From Nannocystales bacterium (GTDB lineage: Bacteria; Myxococcota_A; Polyangia; Nannocystales; Nannocystaceae), in contig JBOEGF010000024.1 in the NCBI GenBank assembly GCA_050633305.1, positions 64,001-128,000 on the forward strand: 64,000 nucleotides of DNA, written 5' to 3'. A program made the position numbers and the translations under genes. The notes beneath the pieces were generated by a model, which saw only the letters and a list, made by a program, of their open reading frames with translations, was not told the origin of the DNA and searched no databases. Position 1 is the first letter of the stretch. Each line of letters begins with the position of its first letter. Shown here one piece after another: positions 44,508-60,633 of this stretch.

Positions 44508-45836
44508 TCACGGGGTTGGCTCGAACACGCTCGTCCCAGGACCCATGCGTTGCTGCAGACGGGAGACTCGGGGCTCGTCCACGTGCACGGGGCCTTCTGC
44601 CTCGCGTCGGCCCGTATCGACCCACTCGCGCACGATGCGGTACAGGCCGTGGTCGAACGGGATGCCCGGTGCGGCCGCGACGGGCTCGATGCGTTCCCGT
44701 TGCCCTTGTCGCTCCATTTCGAGCGCTCGATGGTGGCAAAACGGGTTGTTTCCAGGGCGGCCCATCAAGGGCTCGGATGTCGCGGTGCACCCGCCTCGGC
44801 ACGTGTCGGCGTAGTAACACTGGGCACAGTAGCCCCACAGTTCGGCCGTGCTTCGCTCGCGGATGTACGCCAGCTCGGCGGAGCGAGCCCACAGCTCGCG
44901 GAGGGAGTGTTCGCGGATGTTGCCTCCGACATTCTCGGGCCCTCCGAGGCTGGGGCAGCCCTTGATGTCGCCGTGCGACTCGATCCCGATCTGTGCGCGC
45001 CCCGCTGCGCACCCTTTGTAGTGACGCTTCTGCAGCGAGCGGAGTTCGGCTTCGAGGGGCCCGAAGTACCCGAGGTTGTTGCCTGGCCAGATCTTGATGC
45101 CGCGCTCTCGGGCCCGCGCGAGGAGCGGTCGCAACACCTCGAATACCTCCAGCATCATGTACGGCTGCAGCAGAATCTCGGGGTGGTCGGCCGCGTTGCC
45201 GAACGGCGATGTGATCTGTAGTTGCCATCCGAAGGCCCCCGCGTCGCCGATGCGCTCGAGGAGCGTCGGGAGGTCGTACAGCGTGCGTCGGTTGATCTGC
45301 GTGTTCACGCCCACCGGAATCCCGGCCGCGCGTAGACGCCCGATGGCCTCGAACGCCTTGTCGTGGCTGCCCGGGATGCCCCTCAATTCATCATGGGCCT
45401 CGGCCAACCCGTCGACCGAGATCGACACGGTGCGAATCCCGGCCTCACGAAGCGCCCCGACTCGCGCTTGCGTCAGGTTGAGGCCGCCGGTCGTCATCGT
45501 GACGGACATGCCACGCGCACGGATCTCGTTGACGATCAGGACGAAGTCGTTGCGCAGATAGGCTTCGCCACCGACCAGGGTGACCTCGCCGACGCCCATG
45601 TCCGCGAGCTGCCCCACGAGGTCCAGGCACTCGTCCGTCGTCAGCTCGTCCTTTCTCGCCTTTCCGGCTCGAGACCCGCAGTGGATGCAGCGCTGGTCGC
45701 AAGCCAACGTAATCTCCCAGACGGCGTAGCGCGGGGTCGGGACTTCGCCCGCAGGCGTGTCTCGCAGCCGCCGTTGGTCGGGCGTTGGCAGATCTTGAAG
45801 CACCCGTAGGCGCCGTCTGGCGTCCTCGAGGCGCAC
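44508..45836 (-). CDS. Radical SAM/SPASM maturase, PlpX/splicease-like (copy 1)
   Basis: GTG 1 nt after upstream stop; AVWEITLACDQRCIHCG (Cx3Cx2C), GGEAYLR, SPASM CAAG..GIES.GDIKGCPSL..CAQCYYADTCRGGC..GNNPFCHHRAL..RERI..PFDHG. Confidence 0.88.
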   Translation of the reverse strand: MRLEDARRRLRVLQDLPTPDQRRLRDTPAGEVPTPRYAVWEITLACDQRCIHCGSRAGKARKDELTTDECLDLVGQLADMGVGEVTLVGGEAYLRNDFVLIVNEIRARGMSVTMTTGGLNLTQARVGALREAGIRTVSISVDGLAEAHDELRGIPGSHDKAFEAIGRLRAAGIPVGVNTQINRRTLYDLPTLLERIGDAGAFGWQLQITSPFGNAADHPEILLQPYMMLEVFEVLRPLLARARERGIKIWPGNNLGYFGPLEAELRSLQKRHYKGCAAGRAQIGIESHGDIKGCPSLGGPENVGGNIREHSLRELWARSAELAYIRERSTAELWGYCAQCYYADTCRGGCTATSEPLMGRPGNNPFCHHRALEMERQGQRERIEPVAAAPGIPFDHGLYRIVREWVDTGRREAEGPVHVDEPRVSRLQQRMGPGTSVFEPTP

Positions 45837-45837
45837 G

Positions 45838-46665
45838 TCAGGCCGGGGTGCAGACGTCGGAATCCAGGGCCTTGTCGGCGACGGGCTCGCACGCCTCGTC
45901 CTTCGCACAACTGGCGACCTCGGGGTCGCAGGTTTCGAAGCACAGGGGGAGCGCGCCCTCGAACTGCACCACACATGTCCCTTCGAGGCATACCGGGGCG
46001 TCCTCCGAGTTGCTGCACATCTCGACGCAGACGCCCTCCGTGGTCTTGGCATCCACGTAGAAACACATGGCTCCGAGCACACAGGTATCGATACCTGTCG
46101 TGCCGCTTCCTTCGACGGTGCATGGCTCGCCCGGGCCGACTGGAGCTGGGTCGATCGGCGTACATCGGCTGGCGTTCCAGACCTCCCCGCCGTCGTTCGC
46201 CCAGGGCATGCATTTCTCTCCCTTGGCGCAGTCCTGCATGAACACGTCGCACTCGTAGGAGAGGTCTCCAACATCTGTCGGACACCCGCCGTAAAAGCCT
46301 CCGCAAGAGTCGAAGGTGTCGTCGTCGAGCGTGGTGCTGTCGCCGCCGGTCGTCGTGTCCCCGATGTCCGTTCCGCCCGACGTGGTCGCAGCTGGATCGG
46401 TCGTGGTCGTCCCCGGCGGGGGGAGTGTCGTCGCGACGCTGGGATCGCCGGAGCTCGAGCTGGTCGAGCTCGGTGAAGACTCATCGGTCGTATCTCCCGC
46501 GTCCGACACCGCCGGTCCACATGCGCTGAGAACGGCACCGACCGCGATGACCATGACGGCGACCGGAATCCGCTGGGGAGGCGTCGAGCGAAGCGGCGAC
46601 GAGCAAAACGGACAAGCCGGTTCCGCGTCGAGAACATGACGTGTGCAAGACGGGCAGGGCAGCAT
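45838..46665 (-). CDS. Candidate precursor lipoprotein 1: Zn-ribbon leader, lipobox, S/T-rich stalk, CGGFYGGC motif, Cys-rich C-terminal domain
   Basis: MLPCPSC..CPFC; VGAVLSAC; S/T/G/D linker; DSCGGFYGGCP; CDVFMQDCAKGEKCMPWANDGG Cys-rich module. Confidence 0.8.
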   Translation of the reverse strand: MLPCPSCTRHVLDAEPACPFCSSPLRSTPPQRIPVAVMVIAVGAVLSACGPAVSDAGDTTDESSPSSTSSSSGDPSVATTLPPPGTTTTDPAATTSGGTDIGDTTTGGDSTTLDDDTFDSCGGFYGGCPTDVGDLSYECDVFMQDCAKGEKCMPWANDGGEVWNASRCTPIDPAPVGPGEPCTVEGSGTTGIDTCVLGAMCFYVDAKTTEGVCVEMCSNSEDAPVCLEGTCVVQFEGALPLCFETCDPEVASCAKDEACEPVADKALDSDVCTPA

Positions 46666-46705
46666 TGGAGTACGATAGCTTTGTTGGAGTTCGTTTTGGT
46701 AGAAA

Positions 46706-47260
46706 TTATTCGATACCCGGGACCTCGACATCTGGGAGGACGACGGCCTCTCCCCCGACCACCACATCCGGCCCCAAAATGGCCACGACCAGCTGACCGC
46801 TGGCGCAAACCTCTCCCGTTTCGTCGGTGATCGTGGCTTCCCAGCGGCCCCGGTTCCTGTGGGCTTCCGCCGCTGGCGTGGCTTCGGCGCGAAGTCTTGC
46901 TCCCAGCCGGGTGGCCCGATGGAACCGGGTCGTGTTCTCCAGTCCTACGGCGTTGTGACCCCGCGCGAGCTCTGCGAACGCAGCTCCGACCGAGCACACC
47001 GACTCGAGCATCGCCGCATAGACGCCGCCATGCGTTAGTGCGTAGGGCTGCAGGTGATTCTCCGTGACCACGAGTGTCGCGACGACCCGCTCGTCCTCGA
47101 CCGCTTCGTAGTGGATTCCCAAGTGCAGATCGAGCCCAGTCCGATTGGCGTCAACCAGCGTGGCACGCTGATCGGAAGGGAGCGAAGAGAGGAGCTTGGC
47201 CAACGCGGCCGCCGAGGGAGGCCCGCCGCCGAGTCTACTCTGAACCGCGGGTCCTTCCAC
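46706..47260 (-). CDS. PaaI family thioesterase
   Basis: HLQPYALTHGGVYAAMLESVCSVGA..AVGLENTTRF hot-dog fold motif. Confidence 0.85.
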   Translation of the reverse strand: MEGPAVQSRLGGGPPSAAALAKLLSSLPSDQRATLVDANRTGLDLHLGIHYEAVEDERVVATLVVTENHLQPYALTHGGVYAAMLESVCSVGAAFAELARGHNAVGLENTTRFHRATRLGARLRAEATPAAEAHRNRGRWEATITDETGEVCASGQLVVAILGPDVVVGGEAVVLPDVEVPGIE

Positions 47261-50184: not shown

Positions 50185-50521
50185 CTAGGTGTTCCTCGCT
50201 CGACCAAATACGATGGGCGGCTTCTTGATGACGTGCTTCTTGCCGTCGGGCGTGCGAAGTGAGTTGAAGCCCGTCCTGTGCGCGGTCCTGTGGACGATGC
50301 CGGCGACGACGGCGTTGGCGAGGGGGTAGATGCAACGCTTGAGAAGCTTCTCGCCGCCGACGACGGTCTGGACACCGGGTCCTTCCTTGAAAAATTCGCC
50401 GCTCCGCCGTGAATCGAGTTCAGCTCGCGGGCGACGACGGAGTTGAACCCTTAAGAAAGTGGCTGACTTGCCCGAACCGGTCGAGGAACAGCATGTTGTG
50501 GTGCGTCGAGAGAAGCTCGAA
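50185..50521 (-). pseudogene. Frameshifted remnant of an HUH/Y1 (RAYT-like) transposase
   Basis: Across two frameshifts reads FELLSTHHNMLFLDRFGQVSHFLK / GFNSVVARELNSIHG / RSGEFFKEG..LKRCIYPLANAVVAGIV..TGFNSL, collinear with the intact gene at 52361. Confidence 0.65.
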
Positions 50522-50652
50522 TGGGCACGATCCGTTTGGCCGGACACTCCGCGAGCGGAGACAATGCCAACACAACGAACGTGACGAGGAAGCGGACAAG
50601 AAGGAAATTCAGCGCGGAGTTCAAGGTCAACGCAGTGAAGCTGGCGATGTGA
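50522..50652 (+). mobile_element. IS3-family left-end remnant with truncated OrfA
   Basis: TG-starting end tgggcacgatccgtttggccggacac; 50581..50652 encodes VTRKRTRRKFSAEFKVNAVKLAM*, the typical IS3 OrfA N-terminus. Confidence 0.6.
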
Positions 50653-52095: not shown

Positions 52096-52141
52096 GATGC
52101 GCAGAGTACCCGCACGGGGGCGGCCTCATTCCGGGGAGTGA

Positions 52142-52327
52142 GGGGAGAACCGGAAGTGAGGTGGGAGAACCGGACGTTAGGGGGGAGAACCGGACGTAGG
52201 GTCTCCGTTTTCGAACGGTGGACGGGTGAGAACCGGACGTAGGACGGGTGAGAACCGGACGTAGGGTCTCGGCTTTCGAACAGCGACGGAGGGGAGAACC
52301 GGACGTAGGATCTCCGTTTTCGAACGG
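52142..52327 (+). repeat. Array of REP-like hairpin repeats upstream of the HUH transposase
   Basis: GAGAACCGGA at 52145, 52165, 52185, 52228, 52250, 52294; three long units GAGAACCGGACGTAGGRTCTCSGYTTTCGAAC. Confidence 0.85.
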
Positions 52328-52360: not shown

Positions 52361-53440
52361 GTGGGCCACGGGTTGGCGTTCGCTACGGCGTTCGATTTTT
52401 TTCGCAACACCTCCGAACTGCGGTCGACCCGTTCTGCGGTGCCCTCTGCCCTCAAGGCGGCCAGCGCAGCAAGACGCAAGGCCAACCGTGCTCGCGGCGA
52501 CGCTCGCGACTACGAGCGCGTTCGGGCTCGGGCCGTCAGGCCCAATACCCGCGTCATGATCACCCGGCGGTGTCATGACCGCCGAATGTACCTCAGTGCC
52601 TACGGCGATCCCAAGAGGGGCCATACGCCGGAACAGACGAAGAACTTCTATGGCTTCACGGTTGCCCGTGCCGTCAAGAAGTACGGCGTCTCGTTCCATG
52701 GTGCGATTCAGATGGGCAACCATCACCACCAGAACATCACCGACCGGCTCGGCAATCGGCCCAACTACAAGAACTCGGTGCACGGAAATCTCGCTCGAGG
52801 CATCAATGCCCGCTTCGGACGCTTCGACGGCTTGTGGAGCAGTGGTGGCTCTTGCGACACCGTTACTCCCTCCGACGACGACACCCTCAAAGACCTTGCC
52901 TACAACGACTGCAATGCGACGACGTCCGGCCTGGTCAAGTGGGGGCACCTGTGGCCTGGCTTCACGACCTACGGATGGCGCTTCGGCGAGACCCGCGTGT
53001 TCGTGCGTCCGGACTGGTACTACGACCCGAAAGAGCCCGACAATCCCGAGACCATCGAGCTCACACGGACGCGGCCAGACATCTTTCCCGAGCTGACCGA
53101 CGATGAGCTGTCCGACAAGTTGCTCGCGCTGTGCCGCGAGATTGAGCTCGAGGCGCAGGCTCAGATGAAGGCAGAGAACCGCCGGTTCGTGGGTCTTCGG
53201 AAGCTTGGAAAGACACAGTGGTGGCGCCGTGCGAAGTCACCGGAGAAACGGTTCGGCACCGTCCCGACCGTTGCGTCCTCACAAGCCGAAAGTCGCAAGC
53301 GGGAGCTCCGGAGGAACGAGAATTGGCGGCGCGAGTACGCGGCTCAGCGTGACAACTATCGCTGCGGTGCGCCGGCGAAGTTCCCCGCTGGTTCGTACTT
53401 TTTACCGAAGATCTACAAGGCCGACGTCGAGCCACCGTAG
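52361..53440 (+). CDS. HUH/Y1 tyrosine transposase (RAYT-like)
   Basis: VMITRRCHDRR, QMGNHHH (HUH), LARGINARFGRFDGLW, LAYNDCNATTSGLV..WPG (catalytic Tyr helix), C-terminal FPAGSY. Confidence 0.8.
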   Translation: MGHGLAFATAFDFFRNTSELRSTRSAVPSALKAASAARRKANRARGDARDYERVRARAVRPNTRVMITRRCHDRRMYLSAYGDPKRGHTPEQTKNFYGFTVARAVKKYGVSFHGAIQMGNHHHQNITDRLGNRPNYKNSVHGNLARGINARFGRFDGLWSSGGSCDTVTPSDDDTLKDLAYNDCNATTSGLVKWGHLWPGFTTYGWRFGETRVFVRPDWYYDPKEPDNPETIELTRTRPDIFPELTDDELSDKLLALCREIELEAQAQMKAENRRFVGLRKLGKTQWWRRAKSPEKRFGTVPTVASSQAESRKRELRRNENWRREYAAQRDNYRCGAPAKFPAGSYFLPKIYKADVEPP

Positions 53441-53629: not shown

Positions 53630-53726
53630 ATGCCGGAGACCTCCCGTCCGGACTCATCCCCCGTCTTCCGGACTCATCTCATGCCGGAGACCTCCCGTCC
53701 GGACTCATCCCCGTCCGGACTCATCT
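53630..53726 (-). repeat. Second repeat array downstream of the transposase, inverted relative to the upstream array
   Basis: TCCGGACTCATC at 53647, 53667, 53698, 53714; 32-nt duplication at 53630 and 53681; reverse complement shares CCGGACG..GGTCTCCG with the upstream unit. Confidence 0.8.
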
Positions 53727-55693
53727 TCCGGGGCGTCGTGCCACTGCGCCTGCTTGGCCGGCGCATAGATCCCGAACGACCAGATCTGGCGGGTCTTGGA
53801 CACGTCGACCAAGATCCACGTCGGGTCGGGTCCAGCAGGAACCTCGATCGGCATGACGCTGGGGAAGTTCTCCGTGCCCCGGTACTGGAAGGGAACGACC
53901 GCTCCTCGGAAGACGCGCTCGTCACCCGACCACACCGTCAGTCCCACGTAGTAGCGCCAGATCAACGGAACGGTTGTCTCCGTGCTCGCTGACAACCGCA
54001 CCGCGAGAAACCCGGGCTGTCCGTGAAGCGTTCCGTCGAGGTCAAAGGCTCCGTCCTGCGCTTCGAGACGCGTCCAGCTCGGGTCGGTCGTACTCGTGGG
54101 TGGTGGCGGCGGAGTCTCCCTGTCCCAGGCCCGGATGTACGCGACCGGAACCGGTGTGTGGGGATCGACGCGACGGATCTCTTGCAACACGACCCCGTCT
54201 CGCTCGATGCGCCGAACCACCTCTCCGGGCAAGGTCGACTCCCAGCCCTGGCGGACCTCCGACAGGAAGAACTCGAAGTGGTCGGCGTTGAGCTGGAGGT
54301 CGTGCTTCCAACCCAGGTACGATCCGAGCGCCGAACCGTTGCCGACGATGTGGACGGCGGCACCGGGGTGTTCGTCGCGGAGCCAGTGAAATCCTTCTTG
54401 GTACGTCTCCGAGTAGTGCGCGACGTCGAATCGCCCTCGTGCCCCCTGCGTTCCGCCGACGAGCGGATTGAAGTACAGCGAAGCATAGGGGTGGAGCCGA
54501 GCGCTGGCGGTTGTGCTCTCGGCGACGCCCAGCACCACCGCCACGGCCGCGATGCACCTCGCCCGGGTCCCCAGACGAGCCACGCGCACCCAGCCGACGG
54601 CCGCCAGCACACAGATGGGGGGAACCATGAACAACAGATGGCGCGAGGTGTCGTACAGCGTGGTCTGTTTGAGCACGGGAACCAGTGCCGGGCCGACCGT
54701 CCAAGCGACCAGCAGCACCCAGCCGAACGCGACACGGGCCCTCGGTCGGTTGCGGACCGTTGTCCAAAACAGTCCGCCAAGCGTGGCGACGAATCCGAAG
54801 ACGACGGGAACGGGGAGGGTGATGCCCAACCACACGACAACGTAGCTGGAGGGCGCATCCCAAAACGGGTGGAGTTCGCCCATGAACAGGCTTCGTGAGC
54901 CGTGCACGTGGCGCGTCAGATCCATCGATGCCGTGACGAGATGCCATGGCGGTCGTACCCAGAGCACGGGCCAGGTCGCGAACGTGATCGCATACGCGAC
55001 CACCAGTACGGCGCCAATGCGAAGGGCCACGGCCCGCGCCTGAGATTCGCAGGGGCGGCCGACGACGACCGCGCTGGCCGCAACGAAGTAGAACACAACA
55101 CCGAACGGGCGAATCGTCGCGCACAGCCCCGCCAAGATGCCGGCGGTGATCAGGCGTCGCCGGGTCGGTTCGTGGGCGAGACGGATGCACGCCCACGCGG
55201 ACCAGACCGCGGCTGCGGAGAACGGGATGTCCTTGGGGTTCACACACGCCGAGCCCCAAACCCGGGGGGCGGTCGCAAGGAAGACCATCGCAAGCAAGGC
55301 GACAGCTTCACCACCGAGCGCTTTGGCAAGGCGATGTGTCCCCAGCAGCCCGAGCCCCGCGGCGAACAGGTTGAGCACATGGCGGGCGAAGAACTCGTCC
55401 GTCCCCCCGAACCAGTGATGGTCCGCCAGCCAGGCCAGACGCCCCATGAGGTCGTAGAGCACGCCGTAGTACTCCCGCTCAGGCATCAGCGTGTACGCCT
55501 CGATCTCGCCAGTCGCGAGTGCGTCCATCCACCCGCGCGACCACAGCATCCGCCACGGCTCGTCCGTCGTCGGCCCGTAGTCCTGGGCGACCGTCAGCCC
55601 GATGCCCCAGAACGCCACGAGAACGACCCACGGCCCCACCTTCCAGAGCCGGTGAAGACGTGAACTCGGGTCGATCGCCTCAGACGAGCTCAT
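53705..55693 (-). CDS. GT-C fold glycosyltransferase (PMT/ArnT-like, GT39/GT83)
   Basis: Start MSSSEA overlaps the rSAM 3' end; DYGPTTDEP after first TM, EYYG, NPKDIPF, multiple TMs, YDTSRHLLF, HPY..YFN. Confidence 0.8.
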   Translation of the reverse strand: MSSSEAIDPSSRLHRLWKVGPWVVLVAFWGIGLTVAQDYGPTTDEPWRMLWSRGWMDALATGEIEAYTLMPEREYYGVLYDLMGRLAWLADHHWFGGTDEFFARHVLNLFAAGLGLLGTHRLAKALGGEAVALLAMVFLATAPRVWGSACVNPKDIPFSAAAVWSAWACIRLAHEPTRRRLITAGILAGLCATIRPFGVVFYFVAASAVVVGRPCESQARAVALRIGAVLVVAYAITFATWPVLWVRPPWHLVTASMDLTRHVHGSRSLFMGELHPFWDAPSSYVVVWLGITLPVPVVFGFVATLGGLFWTTVRNRPRARVAFGWVLLVAWTVGPALVPVLKQTTLYDTSRHLLFMVPPICVLAAVGWVRVARLGTRARCIAAVAVVLGVAESTTASARLHPYASLYFNPLVGGTQGARGRFDVAHYSETYQEGFHWLRDEHPGAAVHIVGNGSALGSYLGWKHDLQLNADHFEFFLSEVRQGWESTLPGEVVRRIERDGVVLQEIRRVDPHTPVPVAYIRAWDRETPPPPPTSTTDPSWTRLEAQDGAFDLDGTLHGQPGFLAVRLSASTETTVPLIWRYYVGLTVWSGDERVFRGAVVPFQYRGTENFPSVMPIEVPAGPDPTWILVDVSKTRQIWSFGIYAPAKQAQWHDAPEDESGRG

Positions 55694-57011
55694 CGATCGT
55701 TCGTCCGGGCCCGGTCCACTCGATCGTTCGGTCCACCCGGGGTTCTTCGATCGCCACGGGACCCTCGGATTCGCGCCGTGCTTCGTCGACCCACTCTCGA
55801 ACGATCCTGAACAGCGCGAACGCAAAGCCGTCGTCCGCCGCGGGCTTCACAAGCTCAATGCGCTCCCGCATGCCCTCCTTCTCCATCTGGAGCGCTCGGT
55901 AGTGGCAGAAGGGATTGTTGCCCGGCCGCCCCATCAGTGGCTCAGAGACTGCCGTACATCCTCCCTTGCAGACGTCCGCGTAGTAGCACTGCGCGCAATA
56001 ACCCCACAGATCCGTTCGGGTCCGGTTGCGCAGCGAATCGATCTGCGGCTTTGTCCACAGGGCCGCGAGACCCTCCTCCCGCCACGAACCACCGACGTTC
56101 GTCGGGCCACCCAATGAAGGGCAGTTCTTGATCGCGCCGTTGCTCTCGATGCCGATCGTCGACTTGCCAGCCTCGCACCCACCGAAGTGTCCCGTTCGCA
56201 TGCGCTGCTTCGCGCGCAGTTTTCGCTCGACGGGGCCGAAGTAGCCCAGAGAGTTCGCCGGCCAGATCCGAACCCCGAGTTCCTCTGCGCGGTCGCAGAC
56301 GGCGTCGAGGGCTTCAAAGACTTCGAGCAGCATGTACGGCTCCATGACCAGCTCGAGGTTGTCGGCCGCGTTTCCGTGCGGCACGGTGATTTGCAGCTGC
56401 CACGAGTGGACTCCTTCGGCCGCGATCAGCTCGAGCAAGTCCAGCAGTTCGAACCGGGTGTACGCATTGATCTGGGTGTTGACCGCCACGCCACATCCCG
56501 CACCTCGCAAATACCGGAGAGCCCGGAACGCATGCTCCCAGCTGTCCTTGGTGTTCCGGACGAGGTCGTGGCTCTCTTGCATGCCGTCGATCGACAAACT
56601 CACACTCTCGATGCCCGCCTCCACGAGGGCTTCGGCGCGATCCTTCGTCAGGCCATATCCACCCGTCGTCATCGTCGCGGACATGCCGAGTTCCCGAATC
56701 CTGCGTACGATCAGGATGAAGTCGTTGCGCAGGTACGCCTCGCCTCCGATGAGGACCACCTCGCCGACCCCCATCTCGGCCAGCTCTTCGGTCAGCTGTA
56801 GTGCCTCGGCGGTCGTCAGCTCGTCCGGACGCGCGTCCGCAGCCCGAGGGCCGCAGTGTAGACAGCGCTGGTCACATGCGAGCGTCAGCTCCCAGACCGC
56901 CAGACGCGGAACTGGAACCTGGCCCGGCAACGTGGCCTCGAAGCCTCGGCCGCGCGCGACCGGTAGCGAGTCGACGATCGGAAGGTGATGCTTGGCCTCC
57001 CGGAGTCTCAT
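55680..57011 (-). CDS. Radical SAM/SPASM maturase, PlpX/splicease-like (copy 2)
   Basis: GGAGG RBS and ATGA overlap with precursor stop; AVWELTLACDQRCLHCG, GGEAYLRND, CEAG..GIESNGAIKNCPSL..CAQCYYADVCKGGC..GNNPFCHYRAL. Confidence 0.9.
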   Translation of the reverse strand: MRLREAKHHLPIVDSLPVARGRGFEATLPGQVPVPRLAVWELTLACDQRCLHCGPRAADARPDELTTAEALQLTEELAEMGVGEVVLIGGEAYLRNDFILIVRRIRELGMSATMTTGGYGLTKDRAEALVEAGIESVSLSIDGMQESHDLVRNTKDSWEHAFRALRYLRGAGCGVAVNTQINAYTRFELLDLLELIAAEGVHSWQLQITVPHGNAADNLELVMEPYMLLEVFEALDAVCDRAEELGVRIWPANSLGYFGPVERKLRAKQRMRTGHFGGCEAGKSTIGIESNGAIKNCPSLGGPTNVGGSWREEGLAALWTKPQIDSLRNRTRTDLWGYCAQCYYADVCKGGCTAVSEPLMGRPGNNPFCHYRALQMEKEGMRERIELVKPAADDGFAFALFRIVREWVDEARRESEGPVAIEEPRVDRTIEWTGPGRTIDELV

Positions 57012-57451
57012 GCCTCCTGGTCCGAGTCCGTGGGTTCTTCCCAAACCGACGATCCGGTCGAAGACGAGGAGGTGCCGGGGCCGGCGTAGTACGAGCCGCC
57101 GAAGTCCGTCGTGCTGCTGCTGGAGTCGCCGCCGGTGGTCGAGCTGGTCGAGCTGGTCGAAGCCGGCCCCGCGTAGTACGAGCCGCCAAAGTCCGTTGTG
57201 GAGCTTTCGTCGGCGGTCGTGCTGCTGCTCGTCGAGGCGTCGGTCGTCGACGAACTCGATGCTGACTGAGTGGTGGTCCCCGGTCCGGTCGATGCGCCCG
57301 TGTCCCCATCGCTGTCGCAGCCGACGAGACTGAGCCCCAAGGAGAGGCCGAGCACCGCGGCGGCTCTCGCAGTTCGCGAGGGTGCCTTGCAATGAGGGCA
57401 CACGGTCTCCGAGGCGACCACGAACTGATCACATGTCATGCAAAGTCTCAT
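57008..57451 (-). CDS. Candidate precursor lipoprotein 2: Zn-ribbon leader, lipobox, S/T-rich stalk, two TTDFGGSYYAGP cores
   Basis: MRLCMTC..CPHC; LGLSLVGC; SSTTDFGGSYYAGP twice, 29 aa apart. Confidence 0.85.
   Translation of the reverse strand: MRLCMTCDQFVVASETVCPHCKAPSRTARAAAVLGLSLGLSLVGCDSDGDTGASTGPGTTTQSASSSSTTDASTSSSTTADESSTTDFGGSYYAGPASTSSTSSTTGGDSSSSTTDFGGSYYAGPGTSSSSTGSSVWEEPTDSDQEA
57077..57199 (-). repeat. Two coding copies of TTDFGGSYYAGP (about 57077-57112 and 57164-57199)
   Basis: Identical 12-aa peptide with synonymous nucleotide differences (gaag/aaag, gtc/gtt, ccg/ccc). Confidence 0.9.
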
Positions 57452-57521
57452 GCGTACTCAAGTCGCAACCGACCCCGATTCGATCGGTTGCATGTTGAAA
57501 AAAAACGCTACTCTGGGGAAG

Positions 57522-58169
57522 GTGGCCGCCGATCGCGTTTTGCTTGAACGTTGGCGGAACGGCGATCGCACCGCGGGAGAGGCGCTCTACCGCAACTGGG
57601 TGGGGGCGCTCTCACGCTTCTTTCGAAACAAGGTGAGCGATCGTGAAGAGGTCCCCGACCTGGTTTCGCAGACGTTCGTCGCCCTGACTGAAGTCAAGGA
57701 CCGGTTTCGAGGCGAGTCGAGCATCCGGCGTCTGGTCTTCAGCGTGGCCAGCAACGTCCTCTCCACGTACCTGCGCAAGCGCTACAAGCGAGCCCGCGAG
57801 GCGAAGGACTTCGACGCACTGTGTGTGGCGCAGGTTTCGGCGCACGGGCCGAGTTCCCTGGTCGCCCAAGAACGGGGGCTCCGGGCCTTCGTGGATGGGC
57901 TCCGGCAGCTTTCCCTCGGCGACCAAACGCTCCTCGAGCTGCGCTACTTCGAGGGGCTGACCGGTCCCGAACTCGCCGACGCGTACGACGTGCCCGAGGG
58001 CACGATTCGGGGTCGAATCGGGCGAGCCGTCGAGCGGTTGACCCGCGTGGTCGCGGAAAACCTGGGTCACGCGCCCGGCCGGAGTGATGCACCACAGGTC
58101 GACGAGGTGGCCTTGGGCGGTTGGGCCCGCGCGCTTCGGGTCCAGCTGGGACGCGACCCCGATGCTTGA
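57522..58169 (+). CDS. ECF-type sigma-70 factor
   Basis: DRVLLERWRNGD..AGEAL, DLVSQTF, FRGESS, LELRYFEGL..ELA...VPEGTIRGRIGRA; alternative start at 57492. Confidence 0.88.
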   Translation: MAADRVLLERWRNGDRTAGEALYRNWVGALSRFFRNKVSDREEVPDLVSQTFVALTEVKDRFRGESSIRRLVFSVASNVLSTYLRKRYKRAREAKDFDALCVAQVSAHGPSSLVAQERGLRAFVDGLRQLSLGDQTLLELRYFEGLTGPELADAYDVPEGTIRGRIGRAVERLTRVVAENLGHAPGRSDAPQVDEVALGGWARALRVQLGRDPDA

Positions 58170-60633
58170 GGACCCCCCCCACAGTGTTCACGGAGGGCGG
58201 CTTCCGTTCGACGAGCGCTGGATGCGACGCAAGTCGCGGGTGGCTCTCTTCGGTGAGGACGGCGCCCTATCCCTGGGTCGTTACCAAATTGGCGAACGTC
58301 TCGGGGCCGGGGGAATGGGCACGGTCTACTCGGCGTGGGATCCGGAACTCGAGCGCAAGATCGCGATCAAGGTTCTCCACCATCGAGATTCGGACGCGGC
58401 CAGACGACTGCGGCAGGAAGCTCGAGCGCTGGCCGCACTCGCGCACCCCAACGTCGTCACCGTGTTCGAGGTCGCGCATGCATCCAGCGAGGTGTTCCTC
58501 GTGATGGAACACGTTGAAGGAAGCACGCTTCGCGACTGGCAAGGCGCGGAGGGCCGACGCGTCGGCGAGGTCCTGGGCGCCTACCACCAAGCGGGGCTGG
58601 GGCTCGCCGCGGCACATCGCGCGGACTTGGTTCATGGCGACTTCAAGCCCGACAACGTGCTCGTCCACGCCGATGGGCGAGTCCGTGTTGCCGACTTCGG
58701 CCTATGCGGACGCGGACCGACCCCGGGCTCGGACTCCGAGGACCACGGACAAACGCGTGGTGGAGGAACCGCCGCCTACATGGCGCCGGAGCTGCAGCAG
58801 GACGCTCGGGCGGATGCGCGCAGCGACCAGTTCGCGTTCTGCGTCTCCCTTCGCGAGGGACTGCGGACCGCCGAGGGGCGAGTACCGCGGCGTGTACATC
58901 GCGCAGTCGAACGAGGCTTGTCGCGGGATCCTGACGAACGGTTTTCTTCGCTCGAAGAGCTGTTGCGGGCGATCGAGCCGCGTAGTCGTTGGTGGATCGG
59001 GCCAACCGCAGGGCTGGCGGCCGCCGGGGTACTTCTGGCGATCGGGTCTCGCGATCCTTGCTCCGAGTCTGCGCGGCGCGTTTGGTCCGAACACCGGGCT
59101 CTCGTTCAGCCCGAGTTTGAGGCCGGGGAGCCCCGCTGGGTTGCCTCAACGTGGCGTGGAGTCGATCAAGCGCTGCAGGCCCACGAGAATGCCTTGGTGC
59201 TGGCGGGCGATGATGCGTGCCGGGCCGCGGACCACCGCACCCCAGTGTTGTCCGAGCGAGCGCAGACGTGTCTCGAAACGGCGTCGACCGAACTCGACAC
59301 TTTCATCGAGCGCCTCCTCGAGTCCGACGCTTCGGTGCTCGCAACCGCGGCGCTTCGCGTCTCGCTGCTCACCCCGGTCGAGCGCTGCCGAAACGAGGCG
59401 ACGCTCGAACATCTCGAACCGCGGCTCGACCCAAGACGGCATCAGCGGTTGGTCGATGCGGCCGTCTCGTTCGCTCGCCTTCCCAACGTCCCGATCAGCG
59501 CTGATGAGGCGGAACAGCGCGCGGGGATCGAAGACGGAGGCATGACCGCGTCGCTTGCGCTGAGGGTCAGAGCCCAGTCGGCGATCTCCGAGGGGAGGCC
59601 GTCCGATGCGGTCACGGACCTCAAGCGGTCGGTCGCCATCTCCGAGCGGCAGGGGGATGACGCCGCTCGTGTTCACGGCCTCGCGCTGCTCGCCTTCGCC
59701 ATCGGCCAAGACACACAACGCCTTCGCGAAGCCGAGCAGATTGGGGTTCAAGCCCTGTCCGCTCTCGACGCGATGTCGCCCCAGCCGATTCTTCGCGCCC
59801 GCCTCTTGCACGACCTGGGGTCGGTGGCTGCCCACGCTCGGCCGCCAAGTCTCGAGGACGCGATCGCACGACATGAGGATGCCGTCGCAACCCTCGAGCA
59901 ACACGTCGGAGCGGAGCACCCGCTGACCCTCCGGGCTCGACTGAGCCTTGGGTCGGCGCTCAGTCTTGCGGGGCGCCATGCCGAAGCGGTGTTCTTGCTC
60001 GAGAGCACCGACGCCGCAGTTCAGGGCGTTTGGAAGCACCAAGAGCCTACGTGGGCTCGAGCCCGCCGTGCGCTGGGCCTCGCACACTTGGCAGCGCGAA
60101 ACCACGCGGATGCCCTCGAGGTCCTCTCCGATGCTCGAGAGGCGAACCGAGAGCGAGGTGCGCCCCCGTTGGAGCGCGCGTACGACCACTACAATCTTGC
60201 CCTGGTTCAGCGCCGGCTCGACCGTCCTGCCGATGCTTACGCCGAGCTCGAGCGGGGTTATCCCATCGCGCGCGAGGCACTGGGAGCTGAACACCCCGAG
60301 CTCACCCCTTGGCTCGCGCTTCTCGGGCGCACGGCCCTGAAGCTCGGGCGCGATGCCGAGGCCGCGCGATGGTTCGAACGCGCGCTTTACCTGTGCGAAC
60401 TCGACGGCGCGGAGCCCAAGGAATTCGCCAAGCTTCGACTCAATCTCGCAGAGGCGTTGCGCGAGAGCGATGCCGAAACAGCCCGAGTTCACGCAGACGG
60501 CACACGCCGCTTCCTGGCGCAACAGCCCGAGGGGACGTACAAGAAGCTCCGCGCGCGCCTGCAGGCGTTGACTGAAGCGTTGGTCACAGACCGAGCTCTG
60601 CCAGGGTCCGAGGCGCCACTTCAAAGCCGTTGA
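58162..60633 (+). CDS. Ser/Thr protein kinase with TM and TPR repeats
   Basis: LGAGGMGTVY, AIK, HGDFKPDNV, DFG, GTAAYMAPE; TPR-like GAEHPLT/GAEHPEL; start overlaps the sigma stop. Confidence 0.92.
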   Translation: MLEDPPHSVHGGRLPFDERWMRRKSRVALFGEDGALSLGRYQIGERLGAGGMGTVYSAWDPELERKIAIKVLHHRDSDAARRLRQEARALAALAHPNVVTVFEVAHASSEVFLVMEHVEGSTLRDWQGAEGRRVGEVLGAYHQAGLGLAAAHRADLVHGDFKPDNVLVHADGRVRVADFGLCGRGPTPGSDSEDHGQTRGGGTAAYMAPELQQDARADARSDQFAFCVSLREGLRTAEGRVPRRVHRAVERGLSRDPDERFSSLEELLRAIEPRSRWWIGPTAGLAAAGVLLAIGSRDPCSESARRVWSEHRALVQPEFEAGEPRWVASTWRGVDQALQAHENALVLAGDDACRAADHRTPVLSERAQTCLETASTELDTFIERLLESDASVLATAALRVSLLTPVERCRNEATLEHLEPRLDPRRHQRLVDAAVSFARLPNVPISADEAEQRAGIEDGGMTASLALRVRAQSAISEGRPSDAVTDLKRSVAISERQGDDAARVHGLALLAFAIGQDTQRLREAEQIGVQALSALDAMSPQPILRARLLHDLGSVAAHARPPSLEDAIARHEDAVATLEQHVGAEHPLTLRARLSLGSALSLAGRHAEAVFLLESTDAAVQGVWKHQEPTWARARRALGLAHLAARNHADALEVLSDAREANRERGAPPLERAYDHYNLALVQRRLDRPADAYAELERGYPIAREALGAEHPELTPWLALLGRTALKLGRDAEAARWFERALYLCELDGAEPKEFAKLRLNLAEALRESDAETARVHADGTRRFLAQQPEGTYKKLRARLQALTEALVTDRALPGSEAPLQSR

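Follow-up and report, generated by a model that had tools for sequence, protein, structure and literature searches.

A duplicated Tyr-Ala core as a probable non-glycine splice site of a myxobacterial splicease-like enzyme

Known spliceases remove all but C1 of the tyrosine in an X-Tyr-Gly site and join that carbon to C1 of X, as passages of PMC9811515 describe, and the site is written XYG in passages of PMC11414181, PMC5995677, PMC11626197, PMC10849128, PMC9811515, PMC11002830, PMC10533398, PMC13756444 and PMC10994174. Here we consider a locus in which a splicease-like enzyme is encoded next to a precursor whose cores read Tyr-Ala. It lies in a 64,000-nucleotide stretch of a Nannocystales genome (positions 64,001 to 128,000 of contig JBOEGF010000024.1; hereafter the window). 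Does such an enzyme splice at an overlooked kind of site, does it carry out different chemistry, or does it leave these tyrosines alone?

A conserved and duplicated Tyr-Ala core

The precursor, P0001 (147 aa; 57008..57451, minus strand), consists of a zinc-ribbon-like head, a lipoprotein-type signal, Ser/Thr/Asp linkers, two cores and a C-terminal WEEP. The head (CxxC-x10-CPxC, formed by C4, C7, C18 and C21; 57389..57451, minus strand) is a probable enzyme-binding handle, and its four cysteines are invariant in 19 aligned precursors. It is followed by a hydrophobic signal segment with the lipobox L-V-G-C45 at its end (57317..57388, minus strand). At the level of sequence pattern, P0001 thus has the hydrophobic signal and lipobox cysteine of a bacterial lipoprotein and is predicted to be lipidated; a loose form of the lipobox occurs in 112 of 119 homologous precursors. 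Pfam searches with P0001 gave no match to Nif11 or to PF08898 (DUF1843).

A residue count confirmed the claim of the first-pass annotation that all tyrosines of P0001 (four) lie within two copies of one 12-mer, TTDFGGSYYAGP, and that the protein contains no YG. Core 1 spans residues 85-96 (57164..57199, minus strand) and core 2, 29 aa further on, residues 114-125 (57077..57112, minus strand); the predicted excised residues are Tyr93 (57173-57175) and Tyr122 (57086-57088), with Tyr92 as the predicted beta-residue of core 1. The two copies differ at five nucleotides, each a synonymous third position, for which P is about 0.001 under neutrality (roughly, with about 9.3 synonymous sites in 36 and codon bias ignored), which bears out the earlier argument for selection on the peptide. 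The sequences flanking the copies differ in amino acids. The motif also recurs twice in precursors adjoining enzymes 88-89% identical to P0002, and P0122 and P0123, which have diverged linkers, carry it too. The annotation had named lack of conservation in homologous cassettes as grounds for dropping the idea; in the orthologous cassettes, whose enzymes are 88-89% identical, two G-G-S-Y-Y-A-G-P cores persist between diverged linkers. Because the differences are synonymous only, the flanks differ and the motif recurs beside diverged linkers, the repeat is neither chance nor a fresh duplication, and we conclude on these sequence comparisons that the Tyr-Ala motif is real, selected and conserved.

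A pattern search of the same genome listed 15 precursors with a zinc-ribbon head, P0001 included, after a composition filter that left out the precursor of a neighbouring cassette. P0001 alone among these 15 has YA cores, YG being present in the remaining 14. YG-bearing paralogues of this zinc-ribbon lipoprotein type lie on contigs C5, C12, C14, C18, C19, C43, C47 and C49, several of which contain no splicease-like gene, so that processing in trans is probable for them. The neighbouring cassette, a second splicease-like one (44508-46767, minus strand), lies about 11 kb away in the window; its enzyme is 58% identical to P0002, and in its precursor (45838-46767), as in others of a recurrent subtype, a Cys-rich folded domain follows the core, which here is F-Y-G-G.

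A splicease-like enzyme coupled to the precursor

The start codon of P0002, a splicease-like radical SAM/SPASM enzyme of 443 aa (55680..57011, minus strand), overlaps the stop codon of P0001 (ATGA), so the two genes are translationally coupled. TIGR04103, at 381 bits, and TIGR03913, at 373 bits, lead its NCBIfam matches, well ahead of the next family at 145; both scores are under the equivalog cut-offs (725 and 591.75 bits, respectively). P0002 is a PlpX-homologous radical SAM/SPASM protein with the conserved core that characterizes spliceotide enzymes. Splicease-conserved columns were taken as those with at least 90% conservation among 69 YG-partnered myxobacterial enzymes and the same residue in three reference enzymes; of these 87, P0002 retains 84, departing at E224, S254 and A399. 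Ser254 (56250-56252, minus strand) replaces a usually conserved Asn, and is the only one of 15 barrel-lining positions at which P0002 differs from the YG-partnered enzyme L075. An AlphaFold2 model (pLDDT 92.6) matches radical SAM/SPASM peptide maturases; sequence and fold searches returned no solved splicease structure, and the nearest structures were SkfB, PqqE, SuiB and anSME. The same genome encodes five splicease-like enzymes, and the named homologues of the P0002/P0001 type belong to Nannocystaceae and other Myxococcota.

The scores under the equivalog cut-offs, an identity of only about 40% to the reference enzymes, and a literature search that gave no activity report for any member of P0002's myxobacterial clade all lend some weight to a different view, namely that the whole zinc-ribbon-lipoprotein family, YG and YA precursors alike, undergoes another tyrosine-directed radical reaction, such as side-chain loss or backbone cleavage. 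We consider this unlikely, because P0002 shares nearly all of the conserved columns with spliceases, spliceases are by far its nearest families, and the Y-G-x-P consensus of the precursors matches the splice tags in passages of PMC10533398. The best explanation is that the cassette is a splicease-type system free of a Y protein, from a myxobacterial family with zinc-ribbon lipoprotein substrates. There is no room for a small downstream Y-protein gene, because the P0002 stop codon overlaps the start of a glycosyltransferase gene.

A modelled complex places the core in the enzyme barrel

We co-folded P0002 with precursor residues 1-100 and SAM in three runs, alongside three controls. The ipSAE was 0.80 in the three runs and 0.00 in the best of the three controls; the mark used for this score, which 116 of 157 solved pairs attain and 2 of 215 mismatched ones, is calibrated only roughly for this co-fold. 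Contacts agreed between runs to at least 92%, and the pLDDT of the partner was 60-61. In the model, precursor residues 1, 3, 7-10 and 19 contact the enzyme at positions 259-263, 275 and 371, and the Cys4 head is a probable enzyme-binding handle. Core residues 85-100 enter the barrel, with residues 93-96 against barrel strands, Ala94 against V39, V86, T115 and S138, and S254 within the interface. The co-fold supports binding of the core in the P0002 barrel, although its score may reflect likeness to solved complexes of radical SAM enzymes with peptides. Its output carries no SAM distances and therefore leaves the choice of the attacked tyrosine unspecified.

Tyr-Ala takes the place of Tyr-Gly in homologous precursors

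To place the Tyr-Ala core among its relatives, we kept 165 distinct homologous enzymes (tblastn E < 1e-50; most of the matches listed were fetched) and searched their flanks on both strands, an upstream-only search having missed many cassettes. A zinc-ribbon precursor was found for 108 of the 165 within the fetched flanks, which extend only about 500 nt downstream at many loci. The unfiltered count gave 119 distinct precursors, or 92 after the removal of 27 with a Cys-rich tail. Among the 203 tyrosines of these 92, the following residue is G in 109, A in 47, Y in 13, S in 13, T in 8 and another residue in 13, against background frequencies of 17% for G and 9% for A. YG alone occurs in 56 precursors, YA without YG in 29, both in three and neither in four. 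Pro stands at +3 in 38 of the 47 YA sites, and in homologous cores Y-A occupies the aligned position of Y-G, giving the pattern x-Y-[G/A]-x-P. The altered specificity proposed in the first-pass annotation is overstated if taken as singular: YA is frequent and arises repeatedly, and the residues lining the P0002 barrel match those of YG-partnered relatives except at position 254.

A similar exchange appears outside the myxobacteria. In DUF1843 proteins, an invariant Tyr is followed by G in 75, A in 34, M in 9 and D in 2 of the best 120 of 419 matches, a YA share that is biased because the query held two YA rows out of seven. At one Aureibacter locus, YA, YA and YG paralogues lie beside one enzyme, and DUF1843 proteins carrying YA, YM and YD accompany TIGR03913-type enzymes at L204:1734-2447, L203:1555-1749 and L013:2825-3022. 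Four sister cassettes of P0001/P0002 (L060, L065, L134 and L070) carry Tyr-Thr-Val-Ser or Tyr-Ser-Val-Ala cores, a larger departure from Gly; the enzymes of the Tyr-Thr cassettes have Gly at position 138. A degenerate DNA pattern run against 301 genomes of the phylum matched nine, which was not above a reversed control.

The partner core changes repeatedly among related enzymes

A quick enzyme tree (116 tips, 108 of them labelled) has 14 changes between Gly and non-Gly partners, a raw count with no shuffled-label baseline. Two enzymes that are 84% identical partner D-A-V-T-Y-G-G-A and D-A-V-T-Y-A-G-P, and the enzyme of locus L079 has both a YA and a YG precursor around it; a 95%-identical pair (L075 and L088) is weaker evidence because the downstream flank of L088 is short. 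In a careful tree of 36 chosen rows, P0002 falls in a well-supported clade of 13 enzymes (100/99), each of which partners a non-Gly core; their 19 cores have A in 16, T in 2 and S in 1.

Another residue stands in place of Asn254 in 18 of the 39 enzymes that have a non-Gly core of any kind and in 6 of the 69 with YG only (Fisher p 2e-5). Within the Nannocystaceae clade this Asn is kept in 59 of 61 YG and 19 of 36 non-Gly enzymes, and Ser138 is present in 55 of 61 and 16 of 36, respectively (raw counts, kinship ignored). Residue 254 alone was rejected as the explanation of YA, because independent-pair tests gave a median p of 0.5 and 21 enzymes with non-Gly partners keep Asn; the position is only a lead for YA specificity. 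A change of Gly399 to Ala was likewise set aside as a determinant, with only four changes on the tree.

These data also bear on the possibility that YA cores are poor substrates or non-substrates, that their Tyr motif is kept for, say, binding or glycosylation, and that P0002 acts on YG precursors elsewhere. The published sites are XYG, and the genome encodes many YG-type precursors, several of them far from any enzyme. We nevertheless hold this to be improbable, given the ATGA coupling of precursor and enzyme, the 31 cassettes labelled YA-only within the fetched flanks, the non-Gly partner of every one of the 13 clade enzymes and a co-fold that seats the core in the barrel.

The residues around the tyrosine

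The first-pass annotation had weighed splicing at Y-A against an aromatic cross-link (cyclophane or biaryl, -2 Da) within F-G-G-S-Y-Y. Three aromatics do lie in the TTDFGGSYYAGP core, and an aromatic residue precedes the tyrosine in 17 of the 19 cores of the 13-enzyme clade, so within this clade the aromatic pair could have some role. Across the family, however, the residue at -1 in 50 YA cores from 35 cassettes (motif filter) is T in 16, Y in 12, F in 9, D in 4, P in 4, A in 3, S in 1 and I in 1, and Phe occupies -5 in only 5 of the 50; close homologues replace it with G, M, Q, S, D or A. A stricter filter gave 46 YA cores, 15 of which lack any aromatic residue in the seven upstream positions. 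Because the Phe varies and these 15 cores have no upstream aromatic, and with cross-linking maturase models scoring far lower against P0002 (DynA 51 and WgkB 68 bits), a cross-link is very unlikely; that half of the earlier proposal is unsupported, whereas Y-A splicing to a beta-Tyr ketoamide is the best reading.

Least probable of all is splicing at the first Tyr (S-Y-Y to beta-Ser) or at both, which the two adjacent tyrosines and an evidently flexible +1 position might suggest: the first Tyr aligns with a variable X (T, F, D, P or A in other YA cores), and the second alone is invariant and in register with Y-G-x-P. In the aligned precursors, Y93 and G95 are invariant and position 92 varies. 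Judged from these alignments, what stays constant is the second Tyr, within x-Y-[G/A]-x-P, and the first is the variable X.

Proposed reaction

With Gly and Ala swapped repeatedly in related systems, the usual tyrosine excision by P0002 at an overlooked site is probable, and YA probably represents a naturally occurring splice site without Gly, not a sign of new chemistry. In the proposed sequence, the zinc-ribbon head would dock on P0002 and the core would thread into the barrel, as modelled. P0002 would then excise a tyramine equivalent (C8H9NO) from the second Tyr of each S-Y-Y-A-G-P, at -135 Da each, and the first Tyr would become an alpha-keto-beta-tyrosine amide linked to Ala. Hydrogen abstraction has reportedly been placed on the Tyr alpha-carbon in one mechanistic study. 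The +1 residue is retained in the net splicing reaction, so Ala there would need steric room and not new chemistry. We think it reasonably likely that -135 Da is lost at both Tyr93 and Tyr122 to give two alpha-keto-beta-Tyr-Ala units, followed by export and lipid anchoring; counting against excision at YA, even a DYG site can stay unmodified (in passages of PMC11626197). Less surely, the exported protein may be anchored through Cys45, and may display two protease-inhibitor-like ketoamide groups with an aromatic side chain.

Were X-Tyr-Ala to be spliced, about one-third of P0001-family precursors and more than one-quarter of the DUF1843 proteins sampled would count as overlooked substrates, the Gly rule would prove a matter of sterics and not of mechanism, and the tag options for ketoamide protein labelling would widen. 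Near-identical enzyme pairs with YG or YA partners, together with positions 138 and 254, make specificity directly testable. Genome mining to date has used the frequency of YG close to the enzyme, according to passages of PMC10849128, and Scott et al. 2022 reported 27 tested and 939 predicted systems (numbers as given in a passage of PMC10533398). Our literature search returned no report of YA splicing or of P0001-type myxobacterial precursors; Scott et al. 2022 and its supplement, outside that search, could cover both.

A linked glycosyltransferase and other neighbours

The gene that overlaps the end of P0002, by 14 nt, encodes P0244, a GT-C/PMT_2-type membrane glycosyltransferase (662 aa; 53705..55693, minus strand) and a candidate third component. 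P0244 matches Pfam PF13231 above the cut-off and has a GT39-like Atlas feature match (0.97). A search of 72 family genomes at E < 1e-120 found full-length orthologues in 5, and a search of 400 class genomes at E < 1e-60 found them in the same 5. In all five, the gene adjoins an enzyme whose precursor has S-Y-Y-A-G-P, an adjacency that holds despite rearranged gene order in G037 and G043 (a second genus); the metagenome locus L026 also has an orthologue. These occurrences represent two lineages, not five independent events, and the Y-Y-A-G-P cassette L062 (in G024, 94% complete) gave no P0244 match. Monophyly of the six glycosyltransferase-linked enzymes is absent from the free tree and not rejected (p-AU 0.17). 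A C-terminal Trp with acidic residues within the next two positions (57032-57043, minus strand, in P0001) recurs in glycosyltransferase-linked precursors (L052-L055).

The linkage of P0244 to the cassette is a new lead. By analogy with its enzyme family, P0244 may glycosylate the exported Ser/Thr-rich chain, a step proposed for the P0002 sub-lineage and among the less sure ones. More tentatively still, we envisage a three-gene pathway to a lipid-anchored surface glycoprotein bearing alpha-keto-beta-tyrosine, in which a splicease off the Gly rule (Tyr-Ala, with Tyr-Thr and Tyr-Ser in sisters) would edit in the cytoplasm and a dedicated GT-C enzyme would glycosylate the exported chain; as a whole this is doubtful. 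No system that we found described combines RiPP-type backbone splicing with both lipoprotein anchoring and protein glycosylation. The final product in native hosts has been elusive, according to a passage of the review PMC9811515, and the glycosyltransferase link offers a handle on it.

Elsewhere in the window, short direct repeats in families of 31 and 37 nt (52138-52327, plus strand) stand just upstream of a 359-aa ORF (52361-53440, plus strand) that has no Pfam match and is presumably similar to an HUH-type REP-associated transposase, and at 50521-50652 there is a small HTH fragment of a transposase. A divergent gene pair for an ECF sigma factor and a Ser/Thr kinase-TPR protein (57438-60633, plus strand) is also upstream in L026 and L036, and not upstream in the orthologous L001 and L002.

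Comparison with known systems

The type I spliceotide systems PlpX/PlpY/PlpA and PcpXYA (TIGR04103) resemble the cassette in their homologous radical SAM/SPASM enzyme (381 bits; P0002 is 40% identical to a Nostoc protein annotated as TIGR04103), in a precursor gene directly upstream and in a Tyr core with Pro at +3. They differ in that P0002 is under the cut-off, the cassette has no Y protein and a GT-C enzyme adjoins it, and in having a Nif11 leader and X-Y-G where P0001 has a zinc-ribbon/lipobox leader and X-Y-A. TIGR03913 'GDL motif peptide-associated' radical SAM enzymes with DUF1843 (PF08898) partners are close in score (373 bits), and the invariant Tyr of their partners is followed by G, A, M or D; those partners are unrelated helical proteins without a lipobox, and P0002 is under this cut-off too. 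Aromatic cross-linking radical SAM RiPPs of the cyclophane or dynobactin type are unlike the cassette, since P0001 has no conserved second aromatic or acceptor at a fixed spacing and P0002 lies outside the cross-linker families.

The binary spliceotides RhaX/RhaA, RcsX and RasX, as described in passages of PMC11414181 and PMC11626197, likewise have no Y protein, and their leader probably supplies the enzyme-binding element; that element is a helix and their sites are MYG or LYG, whereas P0001 has a Cys4 head, a lipoprotein signal and YA. P0001 carries no YG and so departs from the X-Tyr-Gly site by which spliceotides are recognized. This, the lack of Nif11 and a Y protein, and the scores under the equivalog cut-offs set P0001/P0002 apart from spliceotide members. 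By analogy with these systems, we conclude that the cassette probably works like a spliceotide system free of a Y protein.
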